In this document: positions 16,487 through 37,306 of the stretch, in pieces
Layout: the number at the start of each line of letters is the position of its first letter
How positions within the stretch are numbered: the stretch's first letter is position 1
From: an uncultured Rivularia sp.
GTDB lineage: Bacteria; Cyanobacteriota; Cyanobacteriia; Cyanobacteriales; Nostocaceae
Length of the DNA: 64,000 bases
Assembly (NCBI GenBank): GCA_963665115.1
Contig: OY762007.1
Location: 2,240,001-2,304,000 of the forward strand
Reading direction: 5' to 3'
Made by a program: the position numbers and the translations under genes
Notes under the pieces: model-generated
Databases searched by the model: none
Seen by the model: the letters and a program-made list of their open reading frames with translations, nothing else
What the model was told of the DNA's origin: nothing

Positions 16487-19157
16487 GTGAATAATCCAGC
16501 CCTAACTCCAGATGTTGAGCCGAGTTCTGTTTTTTCTTTTGAACTCGATCGATTCCAGCATGATGCGATCGATTCTCTGAATGCCGGACATTCAGTTGTT
16601 GTATGTGCGCCTACGGGTTCCGGTAAAACGTTAATTGGGGAATACGCGATTTATCGTGCTATGGCGCGAGGCAAACGGGTATTTTATACTACTCCCCTCA
16701 AGGCGCTTTCCAATCAAAAATTACGCGATTTCCGTTCCGAGTTTGGTTTCGATTCGGTGGGACTTTTGACTGGAGATGTTTCTATCAATCGAGATGCTCC
16801 AATTTTGGTGATGACTACGGAAATTTTCCGTAATATGCTCTACGGTACACCTATTGGACAGGTCGGTACTTCTTTAATAGATGTGGAAGCAGTGGTGTTG
16901 GATGAGTGCCACTATATGAATGACCGTCAACGCGGGACGGTTTGGGAAGAATCTATTATTTATTGCCCGGAATCAATTCAGATTGTAGCTCTTTCGGCGA
17001 CGGTTGATAATAGCGATCAGCTTACTGACTGGTTGAATCAAGTTCACGGCCCTACGGATTTGATTTATTCGGATTTTCGTCCGGTTCCTTTGGATTATCA
17101 TTTTGGTAATAGTAAAGGGTTTTTTCCTCTTTTAAATGAAGATAAATCGGAATTAAATCATCGCTTAATCAAAAGAAAAAGAAAGAGAGGCGACAGAAGC
17201 AAACAAATTGCTAGACAAGAATCTCCTGGCATTAGTGAAGTATTAGAGCATTTGCGAGCGCGTGATATGCTGCCAGCGATTTACTTTATTTTTAGTCGCC
17301 GGGGTTGCGATCGAGCGGTGGCTGAGGTAGGGGATTTATGGTTGGTAGATGGTGATGAAGCGCAAAGATTGCGACCCCAGATTGATGATTTCCTAACTCG
17401 CAATCCAGATGCTGGCCGCGCCGGACACGTCGGGGCCGCTTTACCGAGGAGTTGCCGCCCATCATGCCGGAATTTTACCTGCTTGGAAAGGGTTAGTTGA
17501 AGAACTTTTTCAACAAGGTTTAATTAAAGTTGTATTTGCTACGGAAACTCTAGCGGCAGGAATTAATATGCCTGCTAGAACAACAGTAATTTCTACACTT
17601 TCCAAACGTACCGATAGCGGACATCGACTGTTAAATGCTTCCGAGTTTTTACAGATGGCGGGAAGGGCTGGCCGTCGGGGTATGGATGAAGTCGGTCACG
17701 TTGTAGCGCTACAAACCCCGTTTGAAGGTGCTAAGGAAGGTGGTTATTTAGCAACATCCAATCCAGATCCTTTAGTTAGTCAGTTTTCGCCAAGTTACGG
17801 AATGGTGTTGAACTTGCTGCAAACCCATACATTGGAAGAAGCGAAAGAGTTAATAGAACGAAGTTTTGGGCAGTATTTAGCTAATCTGCATCTACAACCG
17901 CAGTACAAACAAATTTCTGAAATTAAGCAGCAATTAACAGACGTTCACTCAAAGATTGCCAACGTTAGCGACGAAGAAGTCGCGCAATATGAGAAATTGC
18001 GTCAGCGTATAAAAGTGGAACGCAAGCTGCTAACAACCTTGCAAGAACAAGCAGCAGAAACTCGCAAAGAAGAATTAATCATGATGCTGAGTTTCGCGGT
18101 TTCGGGAACGCTGTTAAGTTTAAAAGGTGATAATGCCGAAATTTCTGCACCAGTCACGGCCGTGTTAGTTGGTAAAACACCAGGTACGGAAACACCTTTC
18201 TTAGTTTGTTTGGGAAAAAATAATCGTTGGTACGTAACTTCGGTTCATGAAGTAATAGACTTATACGCTCAATTACCTCGCATTGACGTACCTCCCGATT
18301 TGCTACCCCCACCGGAGTTATCGTTGCAACCGGGCGAATCCGATGATGGTGATGAAATTACAGCCAATATAGCCGCACAAATTCCCGAATCTACAGACGA
18401 TTTGTCTATGGCTCCGGAAGTATTAGAGCAGTCGCGTCTGGTATCAAGTTTGCAAGAGCAAATGGAAAGCAGTCCGCTGCATGGGTTAGGGAATGCCGCG
18501 AGCATATACAAACGTCAAGCCCGCGCTGCTGAATTAGAAAACGAAATCCAATATTTGCGATCGCAAGTTGAACTACAATCTCAACGTCATTGGGATGAGT
18601 TCGTCACATTAATTGAAATTCTTCAATATTTTGAAGCTTTAGATAACTTGGTACCTACTCATTTAGGACAAATGGCAGCCGCAATTCGGGGAGAAAACGA
18701 ACTATGGTTGGGTTTAGTACTTGATAGCGGTAACTTAGATCAACTAGCTCCCCATCATTTTGCTACGGCGATCGCAGGTTTAGTAACAGAAACCTCCCGT
18801 CCCGACAGTAGAGTATTTTTTGAACTCAGTACTGAAGTTTCAGATGCTTTAGCTTCATTGCGCTCAATTCGTCGCAAGGTGTTTCAATTGCAACGCAGGT
18901 ATGGGGTAGCATTACCCGTATGGTTGGAGTTTGAATTAATTGCTTTGGTAGAAAAATGGGCGTTAGGAATGGATTGGGTGGAACTGTGTGAAAACACTAC
19001 CTTAGATGAAGGAGATGTGGTAAGAATATTACGTCGTACCTTAGATTTGTTATCGCAAATTCCTCACGTACCTCATTTACCGCAAGAAATTAAGCGTAAT
19101 GCTCAGCGGGCAACTCAGTTGATTGATAGATTTCCTGTGAATGAAGTGGTTGAGTAA
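16487..19157 (+). CDS. Ski2-like DExH RNA helicase (HelY family), +1 frameshift near 17433
   Basis: APTGSGKT, PLKALSNQK, DECH, SAT, HHAG, TETLAAGIN and QMAGRAGRRG motifs; DSHCT-type C-terminus. Removing one G of CGGGGCC joins the two ORFs. Confidence 0.9.
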
Positions 19158-19938: not shown

Positions 19939-22900
19939 TTAAGCGATATCTGAAACAGCACCTAAAATGTGTAACGTTTCCTTTGTCGCTGCTGTTAAAC
20001 CATTAGCACCTTGAATATTCATTTTTTGATAAGGCTTAGGAATTATCAAAGTTTTAATGCACTTAACTGTATTAATATCCCAGAGCTTAATGGTTTCATC
20101 CTCGCTGCAACTGAATAAAATATTCAACTGGTGACTATAACAAATTGACCAAATACTGTGTTGATGACCTGTTAAAATTTTAAGACAATTTCCCGTACAA
20201 ATATCCCAGAATCTAATAGTGCGATCGTCGCTGGCGCTAATTAAAATTTCTGGTTGAGTAGAAGATTGAGGAATAAAAGTCAGAGCGCGAATTTGTGCTT
20301 GATGTCCAGAAAAAGTTTGCAAGCAATTTTGGGTTTCCACTTCCCATAATTTGATATTGAAATCATCGCTGCTGCTAGCAATTAATTTACCAGAATTATT
20401 AAAAGTTATGGCTCGAATGCGATGGGTATGTCCTTTCAAACTAGTTAAGCAAACTTTCTTGTGAATATCCCACAAATTTATAGATTGACTAGTTCCAGCA
20501 GTCGCTAGAATTTCAGCTTGGGGATGAGAAGCGATCGCCCACATCCATTCTGTTTCTAAATTACCTAAAACTTGAGATTTATTAGTGCAAGTATCCCAGA
20601 TTAAAACTGTGCGATCGTCGCTAGCACTAATTAATGTATGATTATTCTGGATAAATATTATTGACCATATCCAATCAGTATGAGCGCGTAAAGTTTTCAA
20701 GCATTTACCCGTATTTACATCCCAAATTTTAATCGTGCGATCGTGACTAGCACTTGCAATTAGTTCACCATCCGAACTAAAAGTAACGTGACGAATTCTA
20801 CCTTGATGTCCCGACAAGGTTTTTAACAATTCACCAGTTTCTGCATTCCACAATCGAATCTTGCCATCATCGCTACCACTAGCAAGATAGATCGTATTTT
20901 GTTGATAAACGGGACTAACAGCTACAGTCCAAATTCGATTGCTATAACCTTGAAAAGTTTTAATTGGCTCACCAGTTTGAGTATCCCATAACCTAACCAA
21001 CTGGTCATCGCTACCCACGGCAATAATCTTTTTGTCAGCACTATAAGCCAAAGAACGAATGCGGTGATGGGGTTCGTGTAAAGTCATTTGCGGTTCCCCA
21101 TTTGCTAAATTCCAAAGTTGAATTTTATCGGTACCGCAACTGATGATAGTTTCACCATTAGGACTAAATTTAATAGCCCAAATAGCAGTTGGTGCAGTTT
21201 TCACACTCCGCAAACACTTACCTGTATTCACATCCCAAGTTTTCAGACATTGATTATCGGTGCTTCCCACCAAACTTTTACTATCTGGACTAAAAGCAAG
21301 TTTCCGAACCCCTGTGGAATTATCATCAAAGGTTTTTAAACATTCATTCGTCCAGACATTCCATAATCTTATCGAGTCAGCACCACTTGTAGCCAAAGTT
21401 TGACCATCATTACTAAAAGAAAATCCCCAAACCTCTCGATCCGGTTCGTGGAAAGTATAAATGCAAACTCCTGAATCGAGACTCCAAACTTTTACAGTGC
21501 GATCGCTACTGGCGCTAACTACCAAACGCTTATCCCAGATAAAATACACCGACCACACCCAATCAGTATGTCCGCGCAATATTTTTAAACATTTTGCAGT
21601 TTGACTATCCCAAATTTTCACCGTATGGTCATTTCCACAACTTGCAATTAAGTTACCATCCGGACTAAAAGCTACACAGCGAATCCAATCACCATGAGCT
21701 TGCCATGCTAAAATTTGCGAACCATCTGCCACATTCCAAAAACGAATTTGTCCATCCATTCCCCCAGTTGCAAGTAATTTTTGATCGGGGCTAAATGTAA
21801 CGCTAAATATACTACTTAAAGATTGAGAAAAAACAGTTTTATCAAAACTGCAATCGCTAAAATTTACTTGTGGTAATTCCACCCCCTGTAAATAAGCTTG
21901 GGAAATAGGAAGACGAGAAAAATCGTAACCAGCTAGATTTACTTGGAGTTGAATTAAAAGATTAATTAAATTTCCTCCCGCATATCCTACAGGTGCTTGT
22001 AATTCTTGTTCTCTTAACTTCTCAACAATAATACGAAATTTCTGTTCTAAAACTCTTTTCGTCTGGTTTTTGCATAAACTTTCAGCCACAGGTTCTAATA
22101 AAACCCGTTTTTGATTTTCCCTGAGATAATCTGGTGCTGAAGCCTTAATAATCGCGTGAGTTCTTAATAAATCTAACTCGCAACTATCTAATTCATGGAT
22201 AATTTTGGTAATGAAAACTTCCGTAATATACTCCATCACCACATTTTGCAGCGTCAATCCTAAATTAGTAGATTGAATTAAACAACGTCGTAATAAAGAA
22301 TCTAAACCTTCTCGAATCTGACGCGGTGATAAACCTAAAATATCTTCTGCTAAATCATTTTCCGATACAGCTTGACGGTTAATTGCCAACCAATACATTA
22401 AACCTTTTTCTAGTTCCGATAACCGCTCAAACTGCTGCGTTAATAAATCGTGAATATCATCAAAAACAATAATACCTGTATTTAAAAAAGCTTTAATATC
22501 ACCATGAAAAAGTTTTATTATAGTTTCTGGAACAATTTGTAAAGCTAAAGGATTACCGTGATAGCGCTTTACCAATTCTTCGATGTCTTCTGTTGAACCA
22601 CTTATACCCCTTGCAGTCAAAATTTCGGCTGCCTTCTCTAACCCTTTCAACTCCCAAACCCGCACAGGTAAAGTTTCCCCCGCTAACCGTCGCACCTCCT
22701 TAAATTGTTCGCGACTAGTTAAAATCAAACAACTTTGATGTTGAGATTCTCCTATTCTGCGAAATAACTCACCATAACCAGAATATTCCTCACGATAATT
22801 ACCTGAAGAAGAACCACTTTGTAAAATTGATTCAGCATTATCAAGAATCAGCAAACAACGAGAAGCGCGTAAATAATCAATTAATCGCGTGATTTTCTCC

Positions 22901-23505
22901 TCCAAAGTGTCAGGTAAATCAATTTCTTGTTGAAGAGAAAGAAACTTAACAATATCTGCAATTATTTTTTCCGGTGTTGGAGCTTCTCGCAAACTCCGCC
23001 AAATAATATAGTCAAACTCCCCACTTACCTCTTGAGCTAACTTTACCGTCAAAGCAGTTTTACCCACACCACCCATCGCCAAAATTGCTACCAAACGGCA
23101 TTTATCGTTAATTAACCATTGTTTTAGCCTAGTTAATTCTACCCTTCTATCGTAGAAAATTGATACATCAGGAGCAGCATTCCAATCATGCTTTGTCGGT
23201 GATGATTTATCTTTATTATTCGCGCTTTTAACTTCATTCTGAGTTTCAACAACCTCTTCCCAATTTAGTTGTAAGATTTGGCAGAAAGCCTTGAAATTAG
23301 GAGATTTAACAGGTGTACCCCATAGAAAACGCTTCCAAGTACCGATAGAAACCGCGACTACTGGATATTGCCAACTTTTGTTGCCCGGTTCGAGGATATG
23401 ACTCGCTTCTTCTAGCCACGTTGGGTTATCAATGGCTGATCCTCTTTTCTCCCGCGCTTCCTTGATTTTTTTCAGCCCCTCTGGTGATGCTTTTAAGCTC
23501 CGCAT
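19939..23505 (-). CDS. STAND NTPase: N-terminal HTH-like domain, NB-ARC and WD40 repeats (NLR-like)
   Basis: Walker A AMGGVGKT, Walker B LLILDNAE, GNPLAL; about 14 GH...WD repeats; N-terminal ASPEGLKKI...TWKRF...FCQILQLNWEE. Confidence 0.92.
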   Translation of the reverse strand: MRSLKASPEGLKKIKEAREKRGSAIDNPTWLEEASHILEPGNKSWQYPVVAVSIGTWKRFLWGTPVKSPNFKAFCQILQLNWEEVVETQNEVKSANNKDKSSPTKHDWNAAPDVSIFYDRRVELTRLKQWLINDKCRLVAILAMGGVGKTALTVKLAQEVSGEFDYIIWRSLREAPTPEKIIADIVKFLSLQQEIDLPDTLEEKITRLIDYLRASRCLLILDNAESILQSGSSSGNYREEYSGYGELFRRIGESQHQSCLILTSREQFKEVRRLAGETLPVRVWELKGLEKAAEILTARGISGSTEDIEELVKRYHGNPLALQIVPETIIKLFHGDIKAFLNTGIIVFDDIHDLLTQQFERLSELEKGLMYWLAINRQAVSENDLAEDILGLSPRQIREGLDSLLRRCLIQSTNLGLTLQNVVMEYITEVFITKIIHELDSCELDLLRTHAIIKASAPDYLRENQKRVLLEPVAESLCKNQTKRVLEQKFRIIVEKLREQELQAPVGYAGGNLINLLIQLQVNLAGYDFSRLPISQAYLQGVELPQVNFSDCSFDKTVFSQSLSSIFSVTFSPDQKLLATGGMDGQIRFWNVADGSQILAWQAHGDWIRCVAFSPDGNLIASCGNDHTVKIWDSQTAKCLKILRGHTDWVWSVYFIWDKRLVVSASSDRTVKVWSLDSGVCIYTFHEPDREVWGFSFSNDGQTLATSGADSIRLWNVWTNECLKTFDDNSTGVRKLAFSPDSKSLVGSTDNQCLKTWDVNTGKCLRSVKTAPTAIWAIKFSPNGETIISCGTDKIQLWNLANGEPQMTLHEPHHRIRSLAYSADKKIIAVGSDDQLVRLWDTQTGEPIKTFQGYSNRIWTVAVSPVYQQNTIYLASGSDDGKIRLWNAETGELLKTLSGHQGRIRHVTFSSDGELIASASHDRTIKIWDVNTGKCLKTLRAHTDWIWSIIFIQNNHTLISASDDRTVLIWDTCTNKSQVLGNLETEWMWAIASHPQAEILATAGTSQSINLWDIHKKVCLTSLKGHTHRIRAITFNNSGKLIASSSDDFNIKLWEVETQNCLQTFSGHQAQIRALTFIPQSSTQPEILISASDDRTIRFWDICTGNCLKILTGHQHSIWSICYSHQLNILFSCSEDETIKLWDINTVKCIKTLIIPKPYQKMNIQGANGLTAATKETLHILGAVSDIA

Positions 23506-23670
23506 GACTAGGTAATTAGATGAGTGTTGTCAAGTACATTTACGGAACACTACAAGGGGAGGGGTAAGTGATCCGGAATTGTGCTGAAAGTGTGCTGGTT
23601 TTTCTCAGTGGATTTATGGAAGATGGGGATGTGAAGGGTTACAAGAGTGAAAAATGCTGGAGGATTAAAT

Positions 23671-23868
23671 ATGAAACTGAAACTGGGATATTTGGTGTTG
23701 AGTGGTGTGATTTTTACTGCTGCTGTATCTCATACTCAAGCAGCGAATGCATCATCATATCGAGCAGCTCGTGCTATAGGTAATTTTCTTTCAAATCCAA
23801 CTGTTATCACTGCCTTAATAGCATTAATTGCGGTTGTGCTACTAATTGCAAAATACGCTATAAAATAG
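23671..23868 (+). CDS. Small membrane/secreted protein (65 aa)
   Basis: GGAGG RBS; signal peptide ending AQA; C-terminal TM helix. Confidence 0.6.
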   Translation: MKLKLGYLVLSGVIFTAAVSHTQAANASSYRAARAIGNFLSNPTVITALIALIAVVLLIAKYAIK

Positions 23869-23974
23869 CAGCAAGTAGTTACTTTTAAATTCAATATTGG
23901 ATTTATAAAATGGATACTCAATGCTTATACTAATATTTTTTACTATTAACTAAATGAAAGTATTACTTACTCTC

Positions 23975-24065
23975 ATGACTTACGCACCAATATCATTTTT
24001 ATGTCATTATTCGTTGTGTTAAGTAGTCGTAAAGCTTTATTTTTCATTGCGAGTATGTAAGTCAT
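23975..24065. mobile_element. Degenerate MITE-like element related to 12397-12487
   Basis: ATGACTTACGCAC ... GTATGTAAGTCAT imperfect TIRs; also 91 bp. Confidence 0.5.
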
Positions 24066-24144
24066 AACTTTATATTTCAGAAACAAATAATGATAATAAA
24101 GTATTTTATCAAACAAACTAACATTATTCCTCAAGGAGTTAACA

Positions 24145-24312
24145 ATGGAAGGATTAGGACTTGTTTTTGGATTGATTTTATTAGTAAGTATAGCTACAGT
24201 TACAATGAAAATTGCTCAAGAAAAAGGACGTAGTTCTACACTCTGGTTTATTTTAGGAATTGCATTTGGATTTTTAGCTTTAATTGTCGTTTCATTTTTA
24301 CCTCATATATAA
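24145..24312 (+). CDS. Small two-TM membrane protein (55 aa; not in ORF track)
   Basis: AAGGAG RBS; MEGLGLVFGLILLVSIATVTMKIAQEKGRSSTLWFILGIAFGFLALIVVSFLPHI with IAxxKGRSxxxWF motif. Confidence 0.75.
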   Translation: MEGLGLVFGLILLVSIATVTMKIAQEKGRSSTLWFILGIAFGFLALIVVSFLPHI

Positions 24313-24429
24313 AATAGTTTTATCCTTTATAAACTGGATAAATCAAAGGAGTATAGGATAAATATCATTTATCTTCAAATGTATTAGGTTTAATTGAAAA
24401 ATGTAACAAATTGTTTATCTGGGGAAAAT

Positions 24430-24909
24430 ATGTACGATTCAAAAATTAACGAAATAGAAAAAATGATTGATAAAATTGATAAATTGCAAGGTCAAGCTGA
24501 TAGTTTAAGATCGGAGGTATGTGATTTCAATGATTTTTGGGGATCTGCGGATAGGCTTGCAAATCAAATTAAAACTATTAATAGTGGCACAAAAAATATG
24601 GCACATTGTTTAAAAGAGTTAAAAAAAGAATTAGAAAATTTGTCACCTATATTTAATGATAAGGAATCACAACAAATTGCAAATAAATGGGTATATGTTG
24701 TAGCTAAACTAAAACGTTTAACAGAAACTGTAAATAATGCACAATATGAATTGGTTGATAGAAACTTTTGGGCTTGGGCTTCTTCTTTACTTGAAAATTT
24801 GGGAAATTTACTTAGACAAGTGATAGATGACGTAAAAGAAATAGCAGTGCGAGGAACAAAGAAATTAATCACTGAAGGCAAAATATTATTTCTTCCAGGA
24901 ATAGATTAA
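24430..24909 (+). CDS. Hypothetical coiled-coil protein
   Basis: ATG at 24430 within the ORF; helical heptad pattern. Confidence 0.6.
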   Translation: MYDSKINEIEKMIDKIDKLQGQADSLRSEVCDFNDFWGSADRLANQIKTINSGTKNMAHCLKELKKELENLSPIFNDKESQQIANKWVYVVAKLKRLTETVNNAQYELVDRNFWAWASSLLENLGNLLRQVIDDVKEIAVRGTKKLITEGKILFLPGID

Positions 24910-24957
24910 ACATCTAATTAGTAAAACTAAACATAATCCAAAAATAAGGCTGATGTT

Positions 24958-25401
24958 ATGAGCAAAAATATAGCTTTAGAAAAATTAATGACAAAATCTA
25001 CAAATAGCTTAAGAGTTTTAGAAGAAGAAATAGAATCATATGATGATATTGATTTAAGACATATACTTTTTTTATTAATTAATAAGTTAGTGTGTTCCGG
25101 TCAACACGATGAAGATAACACAAGAATAAAGCAAATATACAGAGAATTAGAGCGTATTCGTTCACAAATAAAAGCAGCTATCGATACTTATTCCAGAGAA
25201 CTTAAAAAAGATGATAACAATAATAAAGATACATTAGGATATATATCACAAATGATGCAAGTACTACGAAAGGTTTCAGTTATCGAAGAAAAATTAAATC
25301 GTAAAGACATTGAGAATATCATTAACAATCATAGTAGTAGTAAAAGTCGTCATCAAAAAGATAATGATATAAATTGGGATGACTTAGATTTAAATCTGTA
25401 G
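24958..25401 (+). CDS. Hypothetical helical protein
   Basis: 147-aa ORF in very AT-rich DNA; acidic tail INWDDLDLNL. Confidence 0.6.
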   Translation: MSKNIALEKLMTKSTNSLRVLEEEIESYDDIDLRHILFLLINKLVCSGQHDEDNTRIKQIYRELERIRSQIKAAIDTYSRELKKDDNNNKDTLGYISQMMQVLRKVSVIEEKLNRKDIENIINNHSSSKSRHQKDNDINWDDLDLNL

Positions 25402-25467
25402 TTTATTCTTATAACAATCAAAAATATGTAAAATTATCTCTTAATTGTTATTCCAAAAAATCCAAAA

Positions 25468-26667
25468 ATGCCTTCCAACGAAAACAACAACACCACCTTA
25501 TCCATCGCAGCATTAGCCGCAGCAGCAACCGGGATTTGGTCAATTTTCAACAACTCAAATAAATCAAACAACAACTATAAGCAGACAGAAGTGGATGCTT
25601 TATTTAACCAAGCGCTTGCCTTAATTCAACAAGGAAACTATCATCAAGCAACCCAGATATTCCTTCAAATTTTAGAAACAAATCCTCAGCACGCACCAAC
25701 CTATAACTACCTAGCTTGGATTTATGCAATTCATAACTATGAACTCGAACAAGCACTTGCATTTGCAAATAATGCGGTTCAACTAGCAAGCAGTCACGTT
25801 GATAAAGCTTGTTTTATTGATACTCTTGCAGAAGTTTATGCCCGTAAACAACAATTAGATACAGCAATAGCATTATCTTTAGATTGCTTAAAAATATTTC
25901 AAGGTATTAATAAATATCCTAATAATCCAACAACTTATTTTCGTTTGGCTTGGTGCTATCAAATTAAACAGGATTTTAATCAAGCCTACTATTTTATCCA
26001 GCAAATTCTACAATTTAACAGTATAGGAGCAAACGAACACCTAACGATAGGGGATATTTGTTACGCAATCGCCTTTTGTACTAGCAGTCAGGGAATGTAT
26101 CACGATTCCTTATCCCATTTTGATAACGCTATCCAACATTATCAAATATCCCTCAACATTGCCCAAAGCCAAAACTTTAGTATTGACTTATTCAGATTAA
26201 AGCTAAGTTGTTGTCTGAATGATAAAGCAAGAATTTTTTTTGTTCTAGAAGATTACCAAAGTAGTCAGAATTTATATCTCCAATCACATAATGTTTATAA
26301 TTTAAATCCTTATCCTTTAGTTAATTTGGCTCTTTTAGCTGCACGAGCTAAAAATAAACAGCAAATGCTTTTTTGGGTAGGAAAAACAATGCCTTTGATT
26401 GTAGATATGCCTCCCTACGTGCAGAAAGAAAAGTTAGTATATATTCTACTTACAGATATAGATTTTGATGATTATAAAGAGGATATTTTAGGATTACTTT
26501 TCAACCACGGCAAAATCAACCAATACGAATATGCACAATTTATAAAAAAAGCAATTAAGTCAAATCAGCCAATTATGAATTTTTCACAACAGAACTTTTA
26601 TGCAGATGTTACTGGTGTGGCTGGTAATGTTGAGGGAAATTTCATGTATCAACCTCAATGTGCATAA
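25468..26667 (+). CDS. TPR protein with N-terminal hydrophobic segment and C-terminal GVAGNVEGNF motif
   Basis: TPR helices (LFNQALALIQQGNY, NYLAWIYA, IDTLAEVY); low-complexity N/Q/G/V tail. Confidence 0.8.
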   Translation: MPSNENNNTTLSIAALAAAATGIWSIFNNSNKSNNNYKQTEVDALFNQALALIQQGNYHQATQIFLQILETNPQHAPTYNYLAWIYAIHNYELEQALAFANNAVQLASSHVDKACFIDTLAEVYARKQQLDTAIALSLDCLKIFQGINKYPNNPTTYFRLAWCYQIKQDFNQAYYFIQQILQFNSIGANEHLTIGDICYAIAFCTSSQGMYHDSLSHFDNAIQHYQISLNIAQSQNFSIDLFRLKLSCCLNDKARIFFVLEDYQSSQNLYLQSHNVYNLNPYPLVNLALLAARAKNKQQMLFWVGKTMPLIVDMPPYVQKEKLVYILLTDIDFDDYKEDILGLLFNHGKINQYEYAQFIKKAIKSNQPIMNFSQQNFYADVTGVAGNVEGNFMYQPQCA

Positions 26668-26703
26668 ACAAAACTCATAAATTAATCATAAGGAGATAAT
26701 TTT

Positions 26704-27063
26704 ATGTCAGATAATTCTAAAGTTCAAATGAATATGCATCAAGCAACTATTTCAGGTGGTGTTGCTGGTAATGTTGAAGGTGATTTTAATGTTAATCAAC
26801 AGCAAAATTTATCCGAAGCAGCAGCAGAAATCCAACAATTACTCAATCAACTATCTCAAACCTACCCGACAAACACAACTTCTGAAAAAATGGAAGTAGC
26901 AACAACAGCTATCCAACGTATCGAGAATAATTCTAATCTTCGTCAACGGGTACTCAACGCTTTAAAAACAGGAGGAATTCAAGCGTTAGGCCAAATGCTG
27001 AATCACCCGGCATCAACTTTTGTAATTGCAGCTTTGGATGATTGGCAGAAAAGCCAAAATTGA
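26704..27063 (+). CDS. Small protein: N-terminal GVAGNVEGDF motif plus helical 'NLSEAAAEIQQLLNQL' domain
   Basis: AAGGAG RBS at 26690-26695; the helical domain resembles a common C-terminal module of cyanobacterial repeat proteins. Confidence 0.8.
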   Translation: MSDNSKVQMNMHQATISGGVAGNVEGDFNVNQQQNLSEAAAEIQQLLNQLSQTYPTNTTSEKMEVATTAIQRIENNSNLRQRVLNALKTGGIQALGQMLNHPASTFVIAALDDWQKSQN

Positions 27064-27951: not shown

Positions 27952-29571
27952 CTATCTACTAATCAAACAAGCTTCTTCTAATTCAACTAATAAATCTTTT
28001 TCAATTGGTTTAGTAGAAAAGATATCGTGTTTTAAATCTCCCCATTTTTTACCAGAACTAGTTTTGTGTAAACTAATAATTTCAGGGATTTGTGAAGACA
28101 CCATGACTCGCACGGATTGCAGTTGTTCTAATAGTCTTGCTTTACGATAGTGGTGCGATTTTTGTAATCCCTCTTCTAACTGTGATGCGATTTCTTGGGG
28201 ATTATGTTTCGCGTTATCAAGTAATAATAGATAATGCTCTTGGGGATGTTTTACGGGTACTAAAGTTTTAAAACAGCTTTCTTCTAAGGGTAAACTTTTT
28301 AAGACATCGCGAACAAAATCTGAATGTAATTTTTCACCAACTAAATCACTTACTTCTTTTTGTCTTCCGATAAATTCCAAACAAGGTGTATTTAGGTATG
28401 AATGGGTAAAACGTACTCTATCTCCGATACGATAGCGATAGAATCCACCTTTTTGAGAAATAATCATTTCATAGGTGTTTCCCTGTTTTAATTGGTGTAG
28501 CTGAAAAACAAACCCGCTTTCATCTATAAATTCAAAAAACACTTCATTTAGTACGGGTACGCATCCTTTTGCAGGAATTAAAGGAATAGTCATTGGTGCT
28601 TCTGTAGCGAGAAGTCCTTTTCCTTGTACCAAAACATTAGGAAATAAAGAACGTAAAAAATCAGCACCATCAGCAGCATTGGCGCTATCCCAACAAGATA
28701 TTAGTTTAAGTTCGCTCCATAACAAATGCCAAGGAATTTTATCGCAATAAATTTTCTGGAATAGCTGATTTAATTTAGGATTTGTAGAGATTTGTTTGAA
28801 TAAATGAGGTTGCAACAGCATTAAACGACGTTTTGCTGACATCTTTTCTTTCAATTCTAAAGCTAATTGTTTGCGATTATTTTGAATATAATCAAGGATA
28901 ACTTTGAGAAAAGTTGGACTCCAGATCGATATTATTTCTAATTTTTCTGATTTTAAAAGCGTTTTAGCCAATTCATGTTTAAATTTTTCTGCATCGCGCA
29001 ATTTGTTTAATCCAGGCGGAGAAACTAGAAAATTATTCATCAAAAACTTCAACCAACCATCTAAATATTCTGAATCATCTTGTAAGGATTGAAAGTTGGA
29101 ATTATTTTTGAATTGTTCTTGCTGATTTTCTCCTAATTGCGGGGAAATACAAAAATATATTTTTCCAGTGTTAAATTTGGGGCCGTGTTTAATCAGATCG
29201 TACGCCCATATACAGAACATTTCATTGAAAGAGCGCCGCAAAGATTTAGTATAGGGAATTAATTTGGCTGAGCCACGACTTCCAGAAGTTTTTTCGTAAA
29301 AGCTAACTTTTTCCGCTGTAAGTAGCTGAGTTTTATCTTGCTGCTGTATATGAATCCAATTCTCAATATTATGGTATTCGATTATAGGAATGCGATGCCA
29401 ATCATCAATCGTTTTTACACGCAAATATCTTCCATAGTCGCTTTTAATCAAGCTTTTTAATATTTGATTCTGGACTTTTTCCTGTGCAGCTTGGGGATTT
29501 TCTAAAGCCCGATAAAAATTATGGCTTGTGGATTCGATTAGTTTACTAAAAAGTTTGATGAGTAAGTTCAT
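27952..29571 (-). CDS. GH3-family acyl acid-amido synthetase (adenylating ligase)
   Basis: TSGSRGSAKLIP, GLLATEAP, YRYRIGD and GEKL motifs. Confidence 0.85.
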   Translation of the reverse strand: MNLLIKLFSKLIESTSHNFYRALENPQAAQEKVQNQILKSLIKSDYGRYLRVKTIDDWHRIPIIEYHNIENWIHIQQQDKTQLLTAEKVSFYEKTSGSRGSAKLIPYTKSLRRSFNEMFCIWAYDLIKHGPKFNTGKIYFCISPQLGENQQEQFKNNSNFQSLQDDSEYLDGWLKFLMNNFLVSPPGLNKLRDAEKFKHELAKTLLKSEKLEIISIWSPTFLKVILDYIQNNRKQLALELKEKMSAKRRLMLLQPHLFKQISTNPKLNQLFQKIYCDKIPWHLLWSELKLISCWDSANAADGADFLRSLFPNVLVQGKGLLATEAPMTIPLIPAKGCVPVLNEVFFEFIDESGFVFQLHQLKQGNTYEMIISQKGGFYRYRIGDRVRFTHSYLNTPCLEFIGRQKEVSDLVGEKLHSDFVRDVLKSLPLEESCFKTLVPVKHPQEHYLLLLDNAKHNPQEIASQLEEGLQKSHHYRKARLLEQLQSVRVMVSSQIPEIISLHKTSSGKKWGDLKHDIFSTKPIEKDLLVELEEACLISR

Positions 29572-29658
29572 AGTAGGATAACGAGATTAAAATCTGTATT
29601 TATAAATGGATGAAAAAAACTACTTCCCGCAATATTCTAAGCTAAAGCCTGTATTCAA

Positions 29659-30318
29659 TTACGATAAAATTAGCGGATTTACTAATTGATTATTATCCTG
29701 CTGACAATCTTTTTCGATCACCGTATTTGGATACAAACAGCTATTTGCAGGAATAAAAGTTTGGTCTTTCACAATTACACCGGGAGTAAGTTTAGAACCC
29801 GCTCCGATAAAAACATCGCTACCAATTTTTACTTTTTTTACATACAGCATCAAATCTTGTTTTTTCGGTTTAACAACGTGGGGAAAAATACCGCAGCTTT
29901 GCCCAAAAAGTACGCGATCGCCAATTTCAATTAAGGAACGATCGCCAATTTCTAGTGTGGGAGTCCAGTATACATTTTTACCAACTTTTGCTCCCCACAA
30001 TCGCAACCACAGCGAAAATGCACCAGGAATCAGACGCAATGCCGATTCTAGAAAGCTAAAAGTGACATATATTAACTGTATTTGGTGACTTCCCCACCAA
30101 GGAGAATATTCTTTCCCCCCTAGATAACTAATTCCTTCTTCAATCTGGTAAAAATAGTCATGTATTTTATGGATTAATAATGGCAATCCATAGAAGGAAA
30201 ACAATAAACTGGCAACGCTTAAAATTCCAGGTGAATAACAAACCCATAAGAAAGAGGTAAATCCTAGAAGCATCACAGCAGCAGGAAAAAAGGAAAGTAT
30301 AGTGCTTGTTATAGTCAT
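29659..30318 (-). CDS. Membrane-anchored left-handed beta-helix acyltransferase
   Basis: Two N-terminal TM segments; LWGAKVGKNV, IEIGDRV and KIGSDVFIGAGS hexapeptide repeats. Confidence 0.8.
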   Translation of the reverse strand: MTITSTILSFFPAAVMLLGFTSFLWVCYSPGILSVASLLFSFYGLPLLIHKIHDYFYQIEEGISYLGGKEYSPWWGSHQIQLIYVTFSFLESALRLIPGAFSLWLRLWGAKVGKNVYWTPTLEIGDRSLIEIGDRVLFGQSCGIFPHVVKPKKQDLMLYVKKVKIGSDVFIGAGSKLTPGVIVKDQTFIPANSCLYPNTVIEKDCQQDNNQLVNPLILS

Positions 30319-30654
30319 GGGTTTAAATATATCGATCGTGAAATTGTGTATGCTGACATCATTTTGTTCCTAATTTGGATTTCAAGTAAATTTTGAGCTT
30401 TAACATCCGCAACATTTGAAAGGCGATGTAGTTTAGTAATTTCCACGATATCCAGTTTATTAAGCACTAGTACCAATTGCTTTTAAAACACGTATAAATC
30501 CGGATGTAAGTATCTCAATCTACAATCTCTTTAAATTTTATGCCTGTAATATGAAGTAAAAAGAGTACAACTAGCAGTAGTTGAGATGATGTGTTATTAC
30601 GCAAGTATTTGGATATTCATCGCAATTTTATATTCTCTATACTATCTATACTAC

Positions 30655-31380
30655 TCAAAATGGCAAGAATAATTTTTTCGTCAAAGATAGATAATTATTA
30701 ATACCTAATGAATCTGGAAGATTATCGGATTGATAGTAAGTTCCATGTATTTTATCCCAAAGCTTCAAATTTGCACCGTAGTTTCCCCGATCGCAATTGC
30801 TGGAATGATGCCAAGCATGATCTTGAGGTAAAATTAACCACGGTGATAAACAATAATATAACCATGAATTTACTTTTGGCGTAAAGTTACTGTGTCGCCA
30901 TAAATCCAAAGCCGAACTTAAACTGATGCCTAAAATATACCAGTAAGGTTCTTGCAGCAAATACAGGAATAAAGAGTGAATCCATAGATAAACAATAAAG
31001 AAGCTTGTCCATAAAGTATTACGGGAAGTTCCTAACACGTCCATTTCTGTGACAGTGTGATGCACTTGATGCATAAACCATAGTTTTCGAGTGTGAAATA
31101 GACGATGATTCCAGTAATAGAGATAATCTACAAATACAAAACTTAGCGAGAAAGCAGCGATAGGATAAAGATTTATTGAAGCACGAGTATGTGGTAGCAG
31201 CAACTGGTAAAGTTGAAAAACTACAGTAATTTGTAAAAATGGGATTGCAATTCCCTGAAAAAATAAGCCAATACCGTCTAATAACCAATCCTCACGACTC
31301 TTTTTTCGCCATAGAAAGGGTTGTTTGCTATTTGTAACGGTTAATGCTAGAAGAATTACGAAGGTAAAGAAAACTAACAT
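30655..31380 (-). CDS. Sterol desaturase / fatty acid hydroxylase family diiron enzyme
   Basis: His boxes HRLFH, HQVHH and HAWHH; GNYG...WDKIHGT. Confidence 0.9.
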   Translation of the reverse strand: MLVFFTFVILLALTVTNSKQPFLWRKKSREDWLLDGIGLFFQGIAIPFLQITVVFQLYQLLLPHTRASINLYPIAAFSLSFVFVDYLYYWNHRLFHTRKLWFMHQVHHTVTEMDVLGTSRNTLWTSFFIVYLWIHSLFLYLLQEPYWYILGISLSSALDLWRHSNFTPKVNSWLYYCLSPWLILPQDHAWHHSSNCDRGNYGANLKLWDKIHGTYYQSDNLPDSLGINNYLSLTKKLFLPF

Positions 31381-31503
31381 ATTGATAAATCAGTTGTAAT
31401 TTATACGATTTCAGGATTATATAATCGCTATACTTTAACTCAGGTTCTACCTGGGAATTTTTTGGAAGTGGCTGAGCCACTTCTTTTTTTGTTTGTACTT
31501 TAC

Positions 31504-32523
31504 TTAAACCCAAAATTTTACCTCTACCGATTTATCCGGAAGTTGCCTTGGATCTTTTCCTGCTAAAATGCGATCGCGAATTGACTCGACAAAAATATGG
31601 ATGGTGTCAGCAGGGGTATTAGCAAATTGGGTTCCATACTTTTCGATTACTTGCCACTGAATCTTTAAAGCTTGAATATCTTGCTGGATAATATGCTGTG
31701 TAGTCCAATGTACGAGGGGCTTTGCCAGTTTAGTCCATATGCCATAGTTATAGGTTACATAGGTATAAACCAAAGTGGAATCTTCTGTTTCTGGAATGCA
31801 TTGGCTGGTGATGAAAAGTCTTCTGTTAGGGGATATATCGTATTCAACGCTGGTAACATTCGGCATATGAAAGCTATCGATATGGCGAATTTTATGATTT
31901 TTACGATTGAGAAATTTTGCAAACCAGCCTATATTATTGGTTTCGTTACGGTATTCTGCAAACACGCTACCGTTGCGTCTTTCTACAGTCATTTCTAGCT
32001 GTTGTTTGCTGGGTTTGCGAAAAATCCCAGGATGCACTGAAGCGGTATGAGGAACATCAATAAAATTTTCTGCACAGTTAGTGACGTTATTACGAAAGCG
32101 ATTGATAACTTTTACAGTTTCCCATCCCGGCTGTTGGTACTCAGGCATTTTGAAAGGTGCAAATTCCTCCAAAGGTGACGATAAGCGCACGTAAACGAAA
32201 CCATCTTCTTCTTTAGTTTGATAAAGTTGGTTTTTTCGCATTTTGCTTGAACAAAAATTCTCTCCTTCCGAAGGTACGGTAACAACCTTGCCGGTATCAT
32301 CGTAAACCCAACCGTGGTAAGGACATTCGAGCTTGCCCTGACAAACTTTACCTTTTGATAAACGGGTATTTCTGTGAATGCACCTATCTTGTAAAGCAAC
32401 AGGTTTACCATCTTCCCCACGGAAAACTGCCAGCCATTCACCTAAAATTGTTCGTGAAAGGACTTGATTTGGTTTTAATTGGTTGCTCAAAGCGACAACA
32501 TACCAAAAATCTTCAAGTTTCAT
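31504..32523 (-). CDS. Rieske non-heme iron oxygenase
   Basis: CIH...CPYH Rieske ligands; ENFIDVPHTASVH mononuclear Fe site. Confidence 0.92.
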   Translation of the reverse strand: MKLEDFWYVVALSNQLKPNQVLSRTILGEWLAVFRGEDGKPVALQDRCIHRNTRLSKGKVCQGKLECPYHGWVYDDTGKVVTVPSEGENFCSSKMRKNQLYQTKEEDGFVYVRLSSPLEEFAPFKMPEYQQPGWETVKVINRFRNNVTNCAENFIDVPHTASVHPGIFRKPSKQQLEMTVERRNGSVFAEYRNETNNIGWFAKFLNRKNHKIRHIDSFHMPNVTSVEYDISPNRRLFITSQCIPETEDSTLVYTYVTYNYGIWTKLAKPLVHWTTQHIIQQDIQALKIQWQVIEKYGTQFANTPADTIHIFVESIRDRILAGKDPRQLPDKSVEVKFWV

Positions 32524-32609
32524 AATGTTGTTAGTGGATAGTTGTTAGTTGATTGAAATACCTGGCGAATGTAATTCACTGCTACACAGGCAAAGTCCAC
32601 CTGCGTGGA

Positions 32610-32897
32610 CTATTTTATTGTTGTAATTTGAATATTATTAGTTAACTGAATTTGACAAGCTAATCTTGCCTTTGGATTTTCTGGATCTAGTACTTCTAAA
32701 AGTTCTATTTCCTCTTCCGATGCAGGTGGAATATCTCCTTCTACAGCTACAATACAAGTGCCACAAATTCCAGTACGACAACCGAAAAGTATCGGTGAGT
32801 TTTCTACAGTTAAATGTTCGGCAAGGTTTTGATTTATTTCTAATTCAATCGGTTGATAATTTGTTTCTGGAAATTGAATAATACATTTTTTAGTCAT
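32610..32897 (-). CDS. 2Fe-2S ferredoxin
   Basis: CRTGICGTC ... RLACQ. Confidence 0.92.
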   Translation of the reverse strand: MTKKCIIQFPETNYQPIELEINQNLAEHLTVENSPILFGCRTGICGTCIVAVEGDIPPASEEEIELLEVLDPENPKARLACQIQLTNNIQITTIK

Positions 32898-33027
32898 ATT
32901 TATAAGTTATTTACTATTAACTATTCCTAATACTCTTTAAGACGACTTATCTCTCTTAATTTCTTTCCTCTGCGTCTCTGCGTCTAGTAAGGTTTATTAT
33001 CTTATAATGCCTCTACAAATCAATAAT

Positions 33028-34062
33028 TTATTTTTTATTTGACCATATTGAAGGTTGAAGTCGATTTACATAGCTCATATATTTAACCAACGGCTCATCA
33101 ATAGTTAAAAGAGCATTTGGATTATAACGAATATTGTCATAAATCATTCCATCTTCACCACGTAAGAAATAGTAAGCTAGTTTCGTCATAAATAACAAAA
33201 ATCTACTTATCAACCAACCAATAATTCCTTTTCTTTTTTTAGTTATATAAATAGGCTGAATTCTAGTTTTTCTACCTTCTAAAGGTGTATAGGCATAAAT
33301 CATATGCAAAGAAGGTATAAATCGCACTTTTTTCATGATAGTTAGCAATCCTATACAGCCATCGGCGTATCTCATGGTGTATTCGTAATCATCGCCGAGT
33401 ATTCTTTTAGCAATTTTCTCTCTAGATGTAGTTTGTGGAAACTTACCACTAAGGGTAAAATCAATGATATTTCCAGATTTATTTTCCTCTAGCGATAAAT
33501 CCATTTTGATATTTAGTTTATGTACGGTTTGAAGATGTTGAGCATCAATTCCGTTCATCATACAAATATGATGATGACAATTGCGTTCAAATGCTTTGTC
33601 GTATGATGTAACAAGAGATTTATTTTTTAATTCACCAAACTCTGCAATCTCTGGTGCTTTTTCCTCTGGATAAACCCAAATAAAACCATATTTTTCGTCA
33701 GTAGCATAAGATTGCAACTTGGCTTTTTGAGGAATATTTGATTGACAGGGAATATCTTGACATTTACCTTCACCATCAAATGCCCAATGATGGAAGAAAC
33801 AGCGAATTAAATTACCATCGACTTTCCCAATTGCTAAATCGGTTCCTAAATGGGGACAGTAAGCATCTAATGCCCTAACTTCATTATCTTTACCGCGAAA
33901 AATCACTATTTTCTGTCCGCAAATAGTAAAAGATTTGGCTTTGCCTTGGGATATGTCTTTACTCAGACAAACTATATACCAACCTTTAGTAACAACGTCC
34001 CAATTATTAAATACTTCCATCTTTATTAATGGTTGGGTATTTTTGTTTTGTAATGAGTTCAT
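33028..34062 (-). CDS. Rieske non-heme iron oxygenase
   Basis: CPH...CFFH; NGIDAQHLQTVH. Confidence 0.92.
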   Translation of the reverse strand: MNSLQNKNTQPLIKMEVFNNWDVVTKGWYIVCLSKDISQGKAKSFTICGQKIVIFRGKDNEVRALDAYCPHLGTDLAIGKVDGNLIRCFFHHWAFDGEGKCQDIPCQSNIPQKAKLQSYATDEKYGFIWVYPEEKAPEIAEFGELKNKSLVTSYDKAFERNCHHHICMMNGIDAQHLQTVHKLNIKMDLSLEENKSGNIIDFTLSGKFPQTTSREKIAKRILGDDYEYTMRYADGCIGLLTIMKKVRFIPSLHMIYAYTPLEGRKTRIQPIYITKKRKGIIGWLISRFLLFMTKLAYYFLRGEDGMIYDNIRYNPNALLTIDEPLVKYMSYVNRLQPSIWSNKK

Positions 34063-34077
34063 GTAATTAATTGACTC

Positions 34078-34254
34078 TTATTGATTTTTAGCATCAAGAA
34101 TAAACAGAATTGATCCGATAGTAAATAATATTCCTCCGCAGACAGAAGAAATAGAATAAAAGGATATCTCTTTAAATAAATCGATAAAAGAATTGTTCGT
34201 AAATAGAAGAGAACCAATTAGAAACAAATAACTTCCTAATAACGTATAGCTCAT
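34078..34254 (-). CDS. Small two-TM protein (YrhK-like, 58 aa; not in ORF track)
   Basis: MSYTLLGSYLFLIGSLLF...GGILFTIGSILFILDAKNQ; repeated LFxIGS motif; starts 2 bp after the upstream stop. Confidence 0.7.
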   Translation of the reverse strand: MSYTLLGSYLFLIGSLLFTNNSFIDLFKEISFYSISSVCGGILFTIGSILFILDAKNQ

Positions 34255-34256
34255 AA

Positions 34257-35426
34257 TTAATCGTGTTGATTATTAATTACCCATTTTTTAAAAGCTTTTC
34301 TTTGCCGATTCAAATATCGAGAAGTAGAATTTTCAGCCATCAAAGACATTTCACGGTTGCTTTTCCATAGATAATCCAGAGATTGCAGATAAACTTTATA
34401 GGATTCCATCGCTTCATGATGAGTTTGAAAGCTGTTGTGTAACGCTTCCGTCTCTTCAGTAAAACAACGACGCATCATATCTTTCGCATCTGCATCGCTC
34501 ATCCCGAAAATGCGCGATCGCAATACTTTGTAAATCGCTGAATACAGTGCAGCATCGTACCAAAATATCCCGTTGACTGCCACAGAACAATGATAATGGT
34601 CTTTTTGACAGCCGCGTACTCCTAAGTTTGCAACCAGTTTCTCAAAGTCGGTAGGAGGTTTGATGCAGTTAATTACATCGTGGGAAATTATAGTTGAACT
34701 ATTAAAATGAAAGCTTTCATCCATAAAATGATAGTAGGAAATTTTTGCGGGGATGGGTGCATCTTCCGGATTAAGATGTTTTTGATAATAATTGCTGAGC
34801 TTATGTTGAACTAACTTACCGTTAAGAGTACGCACGCCCCTAACTGTAAAATACTGACAAGCAAGAAATGTATTATCTGCGGATATTAATCCAAAAGCTT
34901 GTAGCTGAAGTTTTTTCCATTGTTGCTTGAGCAAGTTGGTATCAGTAAACACCATAGTTTCTGTATAAGGGCCGCGCATTGGGTAGCTGAAAATACGTTC
35001 TTCAAACAGCTTTAATTCGACTTCTTTAGAGATGGTTTTGAAAGCATTAATATGGGCGCGTTCCTGTGAAGATTCCAAATCGAGCATATCGCAGATCGAA
35101 CGAAAATCCTCTTGAGCATACAATCCAGCAGCGCTAGTTTGGTTAAAAAAGATAGTCGCAATTTCAGCAGAAATGATTTGAGAATAGTAAGCTACCCAGT
35201 AAAGTTGATTGAGAATAATTCTTTGACTTGGACTTGATTCTAACCATAAAGGCGTACCAAAAAGTAACGAGAACTCTTCTGGATTCCAGTATTCATTTTT
35301 GCAATCATCATACTTAAAATCAGTCGCAGCTTGATCTAATAATTCCGTACAATCTTGCTGTTTATTACGTTTATAGTTAATTTGCAACTTACGGCAGACT
35401 TGTTGATTTTCTAAAAGCATTTTCAA
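34257..35426 (-). CDS. AurF/CylC-like dimetal-carboxylate enzyme (putative halogenase/oxygenase)
   Basis: YYSQIISAE, ESSQERAH and HFMDESFH metal motifs; YWNPEEFSLLFGTPLW resembles cyanobacterial CylC-family proteins (recalled, not searched). Confidence 0.8.
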   Translation of the reverse strand: MKMLLENQQVCRKLQINYKRNKQQDCTELLDQAATDFKYDDCKNEYWNPEEFSLLFGTPLWLESSPSQRIILNQLYWVAYYSQIISAEIATIFFNQTSAAGLYAQEDFRSICDMLDLESSQERAHINAFKTISKEVELKLFEERIFSYPMRGPYTETMVFTDTNLLKQQWKKLQLQAFGLISADNTFLACQYFTVRGVRTLNGKLVQHKLSNYYQKHLNPEDAPIPAKISYYHFMDESFHFNSSTIISHDVINCIKPPTDFEKLVANLGVRGCQKDHYHCSVAVNGIFWYDAALYSAIYKVLRSRIFGMSDADAKDMMRRCFTEETEALHNSFQTHHEAMESYKVYLQSLDYLWKSNREMSLMAENSTSRYLNRQRKAFKKWVINNQHD

Positions 35427-35450
35427 TTATCAATTATCAGTTATCAATTA

Positions 35451-35626
35451 AGCTGATGTGCAGCTAAACTCTATAAAACGTTAGCGTTCACCGAAGGTGC
35501 GGCTCAGCGTGTCCGAAGGACATACAGCATATTTAGTTTTGGTGAAGTACATTCTGACGGGCAGGGATGCCCATCCCACAAGACTTTCGGAATATAGTTT
35601 TGTACCTCATTTAGCTGCAAAGGGCT
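35451..35626. mobile_element. MITE-like element with nested mini-hairpins
   Basis: TGCAGCTAAA(35459)...TTTAGCTGCA(35619); internal CACCGAAGGTG, TGTCCGAAGGACA and GGGCAGGGATGCCC hairpins. Confidence 0.6.
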
Positions 35627-35732
35627 GTAAATCTAAAATTATTGTAGTGCGGGCATCTTGCCCGCCAGAAAAATACAAATAAAATGCACGACACCCTACT
35701 TACAAATTTGAGAATATTTTTCTACTCTCTTT

Positions 35733-36638: not shown

Positions 36639-36695
36639 GATTTTATATTTTAAGCTACTAACTAAGAGTTGAATATCTGAAAATTTATTAAAAGG

Positions 36696-36754
36696 GTTTG
36701 TAGTAGCGCTTCAGCGCCTCCGGATTCATGAGGCGCTGAAGCGCTACTACGAAC
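36696..36754. repeat. REP-like inverted repeat with a perfect 21-bp stem
   Basis: GTAGTAGCGCTTCAGCGCCTC(36700-36720) / GAGGCGCTGAAGCGCTACTAC(36730-36750). Confidence 0.9.
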
Positions 36755-36895
36755 TTTAATTATTCATGACTTATAAAGTGGAGCTGGCAAAAGTTCAAGT
36801 TTATTTAAGCTTATTAAAAATGATAAAAACGTAAATTGAAACCTACTAATATAAACATTAAAGTAAATAAAATATTCTATTCTTAACTTTCCTTC

Positions 36896-37153
36896 TTACT
36901 CTTGCGATTTTAAACAGCTGGGAATAACCATAGGATGAGATTCTTTTTCAAAGCTACGATCTTTCGGTAAAACCATAGGATGAGAATTCTCTTCAGTTTT
37001 GTTATTCGCGAATTTTTTTCCCGGTATAAGCATCTCCGAGTCCTCATGAGGGCAGATTTCGGCTTTTTTCTGAGAATTTGCACCGCAAGCAGCAAAAATA
37101 ATTACTATCAGGGAGTTGAAAAGGATTGAACGAACTGTAAGGGCTTTTTTCAC
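36896..37153 (-). CDS. Small lipoprotein with repeated SHPMV(L/I)P motif
   Basis: GTG start at 37153 gives MKKALTVRSILFNSLIVIIFAA-C lipoprotein signal; motif present twice plus a degenerate DSEMLIP. Confidence 0.65.
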   Translation of the reverse strand: MKKALTVRSILFNSLIVIIFAACGANSQKKAEICPHEDSEMLIPGKKFANNKTEENSHPMVLPKDRSFEKESHPMVIPSCLKSQE

Positions 37154-37225
37154 GATCGAATATTTGATTAATATATTTCTTGTAATTATTGTTGTTTGGT
37201 TAACCTTCAATCTAGTTGTTTCAAT

Positions 37226-37303: not shown

Positions 37304-37306
37304 TAA

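Follow-up and report, generated by a model that had tools for sequence, protein, structure and literature searches.

Matched tags on neighbouring TPR and small helical proteins of Rivularia likely mark a prion-like defence switch of inverted polarity

Two adjacent genes of an uncultured Rivularia sp. encode a TPR-repeat protein and a small helical protein that carry a common motif, GVAGNVEG(N/D)F, within a tag of about 25 residues at the C-terminus of the former and the N-terminus of the latter (Table 1). By analogy with described systems, these matched tags likely mark a prion-like (amyloid) defence switch that is built the opposite way round from those described in bacteria. The tags quite probably pair through an amyloid-type fold, and we give about an even chance to the proposal that the two proteins are a sensor–effector pair, as first suggested from the letters of the DNA, with the helix domain as output. 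In the mechanism that we envisage, clustering of the TPR protein, a predicted membrane-anchored molecule, would cause its C-terminal tag to fold into a beta-stack; this stack would template the small protein's own N-terminal tag, and the templated tag would switch on the four-helix domain behind it, the output most likely being membrane damage or growth arrest used in defence. Physical pairing, the amyloid state, the direction of signalling, toxicity and the defence role are what we infer here. The window analysed is a stretch of 64,000 nucleotides (contig OY762007.1, positions 2,240,001 to 2,304,000) of a genome that consists of a single 8.69-Mb contig.

Table 1. Features of the gene pair and its divergent neighbour (positions in the window)
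Feature	Position	Strand	Support
TPR-repeat protein, 399 aa	25468-26667	+	Pfam TPR_12 E 2.8e-15; predicted helical solenoid; 16 homologues
Small tag-plus-helix protein, 119 aa; putative effector	26704-27063	+	68 homologues of similar length range
TPR C-terminal tag, residues 371-394, predicted disordered	26578-26649	+	pLDDT <50; kept in 16/16 homologues
Small-protein N-terminal tag, residues 6-31, predicted disordered	26719-26796	+	pLDDT <50 over residues 1-30
TPR stop codon, spacer with two more in-frame stops, RBS	26665-26703	+	centre of the junction cassette
Divergent NB-ARC-WD40 protein, 1188 aa, without tag	19939-23505	-	Pfam NB-ARC E 2e-14, WD40
TPR N-terminal hydrophobic helix, residues 9-27, predicted membrane anchor	25492-25548	+	hydropathy, alignment
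Unnamed four-helix domain, residues 34-119	26803-27060	+	AlphaFold2; 1,704 clusters

The shared core GVAGNVEG occupies residues 383-390 of the TPR protein (26614-26637) and residues 19-26 of the small protein (26758-26781). The sequence-only reading had claimed two separate genes in one reading frame, divided by stops and a strong RBS, and this was borne out: three stops intervene, and an AAGGAG RBS (26690-26695) lies 8 nt 5' of the small-gene ATG. Fusion to the small protein was seen in none of the 16 TPR homologues, and the length range of that homologue search (219-699 aa) was wide enough for a fused product of about 520 aa. The intergenic gap is a multiple of three in 3/9 homologous loci, so the shared frame is incidental and readthrough is not indicated; together with the stops, the RBS and the unfused homologues, this rules out a readthrough product or a single fused gene. 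The tag match is not due to chance and is a real, selected feature. Of the 128,829 segments obtained from the genome in six frames, only the two of the window pair contain the pattern [AG]G[ND][VI]xG[ND], and a profile of the tag family, built with both window tags included, found no third carrier among the 10,981 genome ORFs of at least 90 aa (next best E 2.1). Synonymous codons in the core had also been brought forward as a sign of conservation at the protein level, which holds for the three codons listed at the time, but the other five of the eight are identical; across the 12 identical aligned residues of the two tags, seven codons agree against 5.4 expected from codon usage.

The TPR family is small, comprising 16 proteins (all of 378-427 aa) among 318 candidates. 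Where homologues carry a name, they belong to Calothrix, Rivularia, Tolypothrix and allied filamentous cyanobacteria. Comparison with Pfam and NCBIfam returned TPR families only and detected no catalytic or NTPase domain. In the AlphaFold2 model a helical solenoid spans residues 37-364 (mean pLDDT 77.7), preceded by a low-confidence helix at residues 9-27 and followed by a disordered tail (364-399, pLDDT <50) that holds the tag. The 19-residue hydropathy of the N-terminal helix is 1.56 in the window protein and 1.26-2.18 in 15 of the 16 homologues, the sixteenth starting after the helix. The C-terminal part of the protein was matched in 10 of the 201 genomes of the family, the window genome included, and in all ten the tail lies directly upstream of the small gene. 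Seven of these loci have a full-length TPR gene and three have tail remnants only, one of the latter with its small gene in two pieces. Scans of metagenome and genome contigs with a single TPR query returned only loci that were already known or nearly so. At another locus, the tail and tag typical of the TPR protein have been taken over by a different, 112-aa protein encoded upstream of the small gene (L007:1863-2198, minus strand).

The sequence-only reading had not recognised the small protein as an example of a tag-plus-helix module that is widespread. AlphaFold2 predicts a disordered 30-residue head followed by four helices, with pLDDT values of 78-86 in ten-residue blocks from residue 41. 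The four-helix domain falls into 1,704 clusters (50% identity) at E<=0.001; small-protein or helix-domain matches occur in 121 of the 201 genomes of the family, and the domain in 52 of 301 genomes of the phylum. It is C-terminal in 142 of the 150 best representatives and is preceded by a G+N-rich segment in 137/149, compared with 207/867 control windows; the tags contain 15.8% G and 16.8% N, with 0.7% L and 0.9% P. Many of the 62 representatives that were scanned are pentapeptide-repeat proteins, others carry TIR, TRADD-N, SLOG or LRR-Roc-COR domains, and fusions of the helix domain to CHAT and AbiTii were seen in the loci. Pfam gave no match at cut-off for 33 members (one reached E 0.012 against EAD8), and there was no NCBIfam match. 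Comparison with PDB sequences yielded only partial armadillo-repeat matches, judged to be noise, and structural searches with Foldseek (E<=0.001) and a wide VIA-align fold search (Z>=8) yielded none. Among the fold-search rows listed there is no Bell-like entry, and the best of them is a TetR protein (Z 5.6, rmsd 3.9, 92 aligned). The ESM Atlas returned unnamed cyanobacterial clusters and sub-0.9 leads to TCAD2, DUF4404, DUF5955 and DUF2321. Such a lack of matches does not establish a new fold. At E<=1e-5, PADLOC 2.0 matched no family to either the TPR or the small protein.

Several relatives of the small protein depart from the window arrangement. A second copy of the helix domain in the window genome (G000:C1:3495017-3495724) has a charged tandem-repeat linker before the domain and does not carry the window tag. 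Close homologues, up to 80% identical over the helix domain, have a different, BASS3/RHIM-like head (P0025, P0026, P0030, L073), and at L073 the tail of the upstream gene matches the head of that locus. In viral contigs the domain was found at one locus among 68 pattern matches; here a contig of the viral collection with a terminase-like gene encodes a 479-aa membrane protein that ends in tag and helix domain and adjoins a vWA-like gene (L163:1831-3267).

The matching of tags between neighbouring genes was examined across cyanobacterial loci. The sample comprised 139 non-redundant helix-domain hits (loci L001-L150), which were top hits and not a random sample, in which kin loci are not independent; pairs were not selected on score, and a score of at least 45 counted as a match. 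Upstream, 35 of 61 stand-alone copies had a same-strand ORF of at least 100 aa and were scored, the 26 lacking one being dropped, and tag and upstream tail matched in 22/35 own pairs compared with 15/1,098 pairs from other tag clusters. Downstream, where 72 hits had a scorable ORF, tag and downstream head matched in 35/72 own pairs compared with 21/1,674. Permutations with one representative per cluster gave p<=0.001 in 200/200 draws for the upstream pairs (17 clusters), and a median p of 0.001 with a maximum of 0.032 in 200 draws for the downstream pairs (9 clusters). Tags thus match between neighbouring genes in many tag families, the co-variation on which the proposed pairing had been made to depend. 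At identical residues the codons are identical in 167/311 and 327/626 cases, against 134 and 290 expected for unrelated codons under the codon usage of the window genome. About one silent site in two has diverged and the amino acids have been retained, which argues for conservation at the protein level and disfavours recent duplication or gene conversion as the sole cause; the excess over the unrelated expectation points to shared ancestry of the matched tags.

Matching within the TPR family itself is a weaker guide. Eight aligned junction cassettes (TPR tail, spacer and small-gene head) show two cassette types and two TPR body types in all four combinations, the tail types are interleaved on the TPR tree, and both tags lie about 140 nt apart in the TPR loci. 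The two tags are exchanged as one cassette, so the pairs stay matched, yet covariation within the family is not independent evidence; concordance may reflect linkage, and we have discarded it as independent proof. Internal starts were analysed in 58 fused genes (loci L011-L150). A Met lies 15-62 residues before the helix domain in 52/58, compared with 112/328 control windows. An SD-like word precedes such a Met in 26/58 fused genes versus 5/156 other internal Mets, a contrast somewhat favoured by counting the former per gene and the latter per Met; stand-alone starts have such a word in 36/56. Examples of an SD-like word and ATG before the tag are found in fused CHAT, pentapeptide, COR and AbiTii genes (L011, L121, L125, L143). 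Either the fused genes also make the free tag-plus-helix module or they retain an old start after fusion; on these sequence signals, nested isoforms of the module are possible.

An old start inside a fusion is also what would be expected if the second tag were a relic: on this view the self-contained tag-plus-helix gene inserts or duplicates beside other genes and leaves a copy of its own start at their ends, the two copies then travelling together without interacting. The module does keep its own RBS and ATG inside fusions, genes are often fused or split, the junction is exchanged as one unit, and identical codons lie somewhat above the unrelated expectation, as common ancestry predicts. We nonetheless regard a relic as very improbable in view of the silent-site divergence, of the TPR tail tag that is conserved in homologues down to 46% identity, and of matches that also occur beyond the helix domain, at the N-termini of downstream genes, and in a convergent neighbour (L197).

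The partners of the module differ with their position. Among the neighbours examined, 24/62 stand-alone copies match upstream, 13/62 downstream, none on both sides and 25/62 on neither. A P-loop is present in 29/35 matched downstream partners versus 5/37 unmatched ones. Twelve of 20 scanned matched downstream partners contain NACHT, NB-ARC, nSTAND1 or AAA_35, in the canonical BASS receptor position; three of the other eight have other domains and five none at E<=1e-9. The matched upstream partners include the TPR family, DUF6232 membrane proteins, a caspase-domain protein, an FHA protein and a NACHT-HEAT protein. The ten DUF6232-like two-helix membrane partners, mostly 20-41% identical, fall into five tag classes, each scoring highest within its own locus class, with the tenth (L103) giving no score in the scoring window used. 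DUF6232 proteins ending in the tag of the next small gene were seen at L029, L046, L053, L056, L088, L094, L100, L113, L116 and L175, and none of the papers searched uses the term DUF6232. Some modules carry two different tags in tandem (L025, L028, L030, L129, L140, L147), and in several of them the head of the downstream NTPase resembles only one of the two.

The window tag family itself is found on other proteins, and these bear on polarity. NB-ARC proteins encoded after a stand-alone small gene begin with it (L105, L106), as do TRADD-N-pentapeptide proteins (L164, L180). NACHT-HEAT proteins of 815-1,032 aa, encoded close to a tag-plus-helix gene, end in it (L195, L196, L197), the tagged neighbour at L197 being transcribed convergently, and a homologous 820-aa protein (L194) has NTPase, HEAT, tag and helix in one chain. 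NACHT was named by Pfam for L196 and L107, and in the others the corresponding region shares 45-77% identity with that of L196. These arrangements parallel the two-gene and all-in-one forms known from fungal and bacterial systems; the helix domain takes the effector position, and C-terminal tags fall on the sensor side. The unusual polarity of the window pair, motif at the C-terminus of the sensor and N-terminus of the effector, is therefore supported. By analogy with the tagged NACHT-HEAT proteins we read the TPR protein as the putative sensor and nucleator. With unfused homologues and tags matched between neighbours, the sensor–effector pair stands as a candidate, and we infer the identity of its sensor.

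A hydrophobic N-terminal helix combined with a C-terminal tag is, on the other hand, the layout of described effectors, and the roles of the two window proteins could be reversed. The tags would then pair as amyloid and the helix domain would act as an adaptor, or as a threshold-setting cap or decoy, the effector being the tagged partner, here the TPR protein. The fly Imd protein, in which a Death domain stands behind a cRHIM, offers an analogue of such an adaptor. The helix domain is, moreover, appended to CHAT, TIR and AbiTii proteins, effectors in their own right, and an internal RBS and ATG in fused genes would give a free tag-plus-helix copy suited to buffering. The domain is also weakly hydrophobic: none of its segments is of transmembrane grade (over 128 domains, the best 19-residue hydropathy has a median of 0.89), its first and last helices have mean hydrophobicities of 0.08 and 0.21, and no resemblance to known pore formers was detected. 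Against this, the 13 stand-alone cases with a downstream match mostly face an NLR-type NTPase, and the small protein is the sole candidate output at the locus. The window genome has no third tag carrier, its other helix-domain copy sitting on a repeat protein elsewhere, and in the NACHT-HEAT-tag-helix fusions the domain occupies the place expected of an effector. An adaptor or cap is thus unlikely in our judgement, and we put the chances that the small protein acts as the output in the way proposed at about even.

Among known systems, the Bell-BASS/NLR pairs BASS1-10 come closest in overall design. As described in the accessible text of Dyrka et al. (10.1101/2020.01.06.895854), they share with the window pair adjacent genes with a short, locus-specific G/N/hydrophobic motif, a small helical partner, filamentous cyanobacterial hosts, many motif families, two-gene and all-in-one forms, and CHAT and TIR among the associated domains. 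The same text (10.1101/2020.01.06.895854) places bacterial motifs at the C-termini of effectors, such as Bell, and the N-termini of NLR receptors. Here the motif precedes a C-terminal helix domain, and the window partner, a TPR protein, has its motif at the C-terminus and contains no NTPase. A NACHT or NB-ARC partner with an N-terminal motif is absent from the window and present at the related L105 and L106. The window pair lacks both defining features and is thus not a member of the Bell-BASS/NLR class. Bab/Agp (BASS11), an antiphage pair of E. coli, resembles it in combining a non-NLR TPR partner with a helical protein of about 110 aa through a matched motif encoded in adjacent genes (available text of 10.1101/2024.11.07.622273). 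In Bab, a Bell-like domain whose first helix is of the MEPIS type comes first and the motif stands at the C-terminus, the reverse of the small protein, and Agp has an N-terminal motif followed by GreA/B-C and PIN, unlike the TPR protein with its C-terminal motif and no enzyme domain (10.1101/2024.11.07.622273, same text). By analogy, Bab/Agp is the experimental model for the mechanism proposed for the window pair.

Templated assembly by short matched motifs, as proposed here, is shared with fungal HET-S/NWD2 and HELLP/PNT1 and metazoan RHIM/cRHIM (PMC7889193, PMC13506858, from the portions accessible), from which the window pair differs in having no HeLo or HELL domain, no two-repeat prion domain and a tag with no G-phi-Q-phi-G core. 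The G-phi-Q-phi-G core of RHIM/BASS3/PP is replaced by G-N-V-E-G in the window tags and Pfam scans gave no RHIM match; some small-protein homologues carry a Q-V/I-G-D word instead. The effector-associated domain (EAD) and TRADD-N systems of multicellular bacteria likewise place a small helical domain on variable effectors (TIR, CHAT, Roc-COR, pentapeptide, TRADD-N) in cyanobacteria, but the helix domain matches no EAD model at cut-off, and neither the domain nor the paired motif is described in the accessible parts of PMC7159879 and PMC8195603. Neither GVAGNVEG nor AGNVEGD turned up in a text search of the accessible part of the BASS data set (PMC8086366 supplement 1); the shorter words GNVEG and VAGNV are present in a small number of its entries, some of class C02. 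The available parts of PMC8086366, PMC12261475 and 10.64898/2026.10.19.760177 hold nothing on the helix domain. In a literature search that covered mostly papers outside subscription, layout and helix domain were not found, and either could be listed in the supplements of 10.1101/2020.01.06.895854, 10.1101/2024.11.07.622273 or PMC8195603.

Whether matched tags imply a polymer is a separate matter. Matching and covariation indicate pairing at most, each window protein has one tag, and no listed BASS family has been shown to include it, all of which would suit finite beta-strand docking of two cooperating proteins, as a heterodimer or short beta-solenoid, with no self-propagating amyloid. Docking would not readily account for tags that are near-identical, not complementary, on both partners. 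The window tags fit the features of the amyloid-motif class in being short, G/N-rich, predicted disordered and terminal; together with a low L and P content and the N-terminal position on NLRs, these are features of validated amyloid motifs. The heads of P0025 and L073, moreover, carry QVGDGN or VQIGD, words frequent in the BASS3-like class of the training set (PMC8086366, accessible part). Docking therefore seems rather improbable, and the best reading, by analogy, is an amyloid-type pair that would resemble BASS systems in the matching and composition of its tags and in the layout of its genes; its effector would be inverted and of a non-Bell type, and its driver a non-NLR TPR protein.

Unlike in Bell-BASS/NLR pairs, the motif precedes a C-terminal helix domain, the partner motif may be C-terminal and the partner in the window is a non-NLR TPR protein. 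A wider and more tentative proposal, to which we assign somewhat less than an even chance, is that the tag-plus-helix protein represents a new class of amyloid-activated executioner acting from a free C-terminus, a mirror image of Bell/HeLo/MLKL. It would be a plug-in module with its own start, which cyanobacteria, by swapping a two-tag cassette of about 200 nt, would wire to NLRs, to membrane proteins and caspases, and to plain TPR proteins, and would allow NLR-independent signalling and nested short isoforms. The accessible text of a 2021 review notes that motif searches have been biased towards the NLR/executor layout, and raises the question of whether NLR-independent pathways also make use of signalling amyloids (PMC7889193). 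The window pair provides a direct, small test case, with two genes, one tag and no third carrier found in the genome. If our reading is true, the amyloid-controlled outputs gain an unnamed domain that comprises about 1,700 sequence clusters, the polarity of amyloid signalling can be inverted, and many natural orthogonal tag pairs become available for studies of specificity and for engineering.

The gene context of the pair fits a variable, defence-type island. The NLR-like neighbour named in the sequence-only reading does exist as the NB-ARC-WD40 gene, but the tag-family profile found no match in its product; without a tag it is not the nucleator, and it was ruled out as tag donor. A homologue of 72-78% identity lies upstream in 5/9 related loci, one of them truncated; it is absent from three, and in one the contig ends. 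The G+C content is low, at 0.29, for 24001-26000, between this gene and the pair, and 23506-25467 holds small coiled-coil and hydrophobic ORFs that belong to no family at cut-off. The NB-ARC-WD40/TPR slot is variable in L154-L157 and L160, with a GTPase and a vWA gene, or an IetA-like AAA ATPase and small membrane proteins, and one related locus has a Tn7-like TnsABC/TniQ block between the NB-ARC-WD40 gene and the pair. Further upstream in the window, overlapping ORFs of 337 and 582 aa (16487-19157), possibly reflecting a frameshift or sequencing error, represent what we take from visible motifs to be a DEAD/DEAH-type helicase-like gene. Downstream of the pair (27952-38401) lie genes that we assume by resemblance to encode Rieske-type oxygenase, GH3-like, ferredoxin, desaturase/hydroxylase-like and ferritin-like proteins, presumably a lipid or secondary-metabolite pathway.
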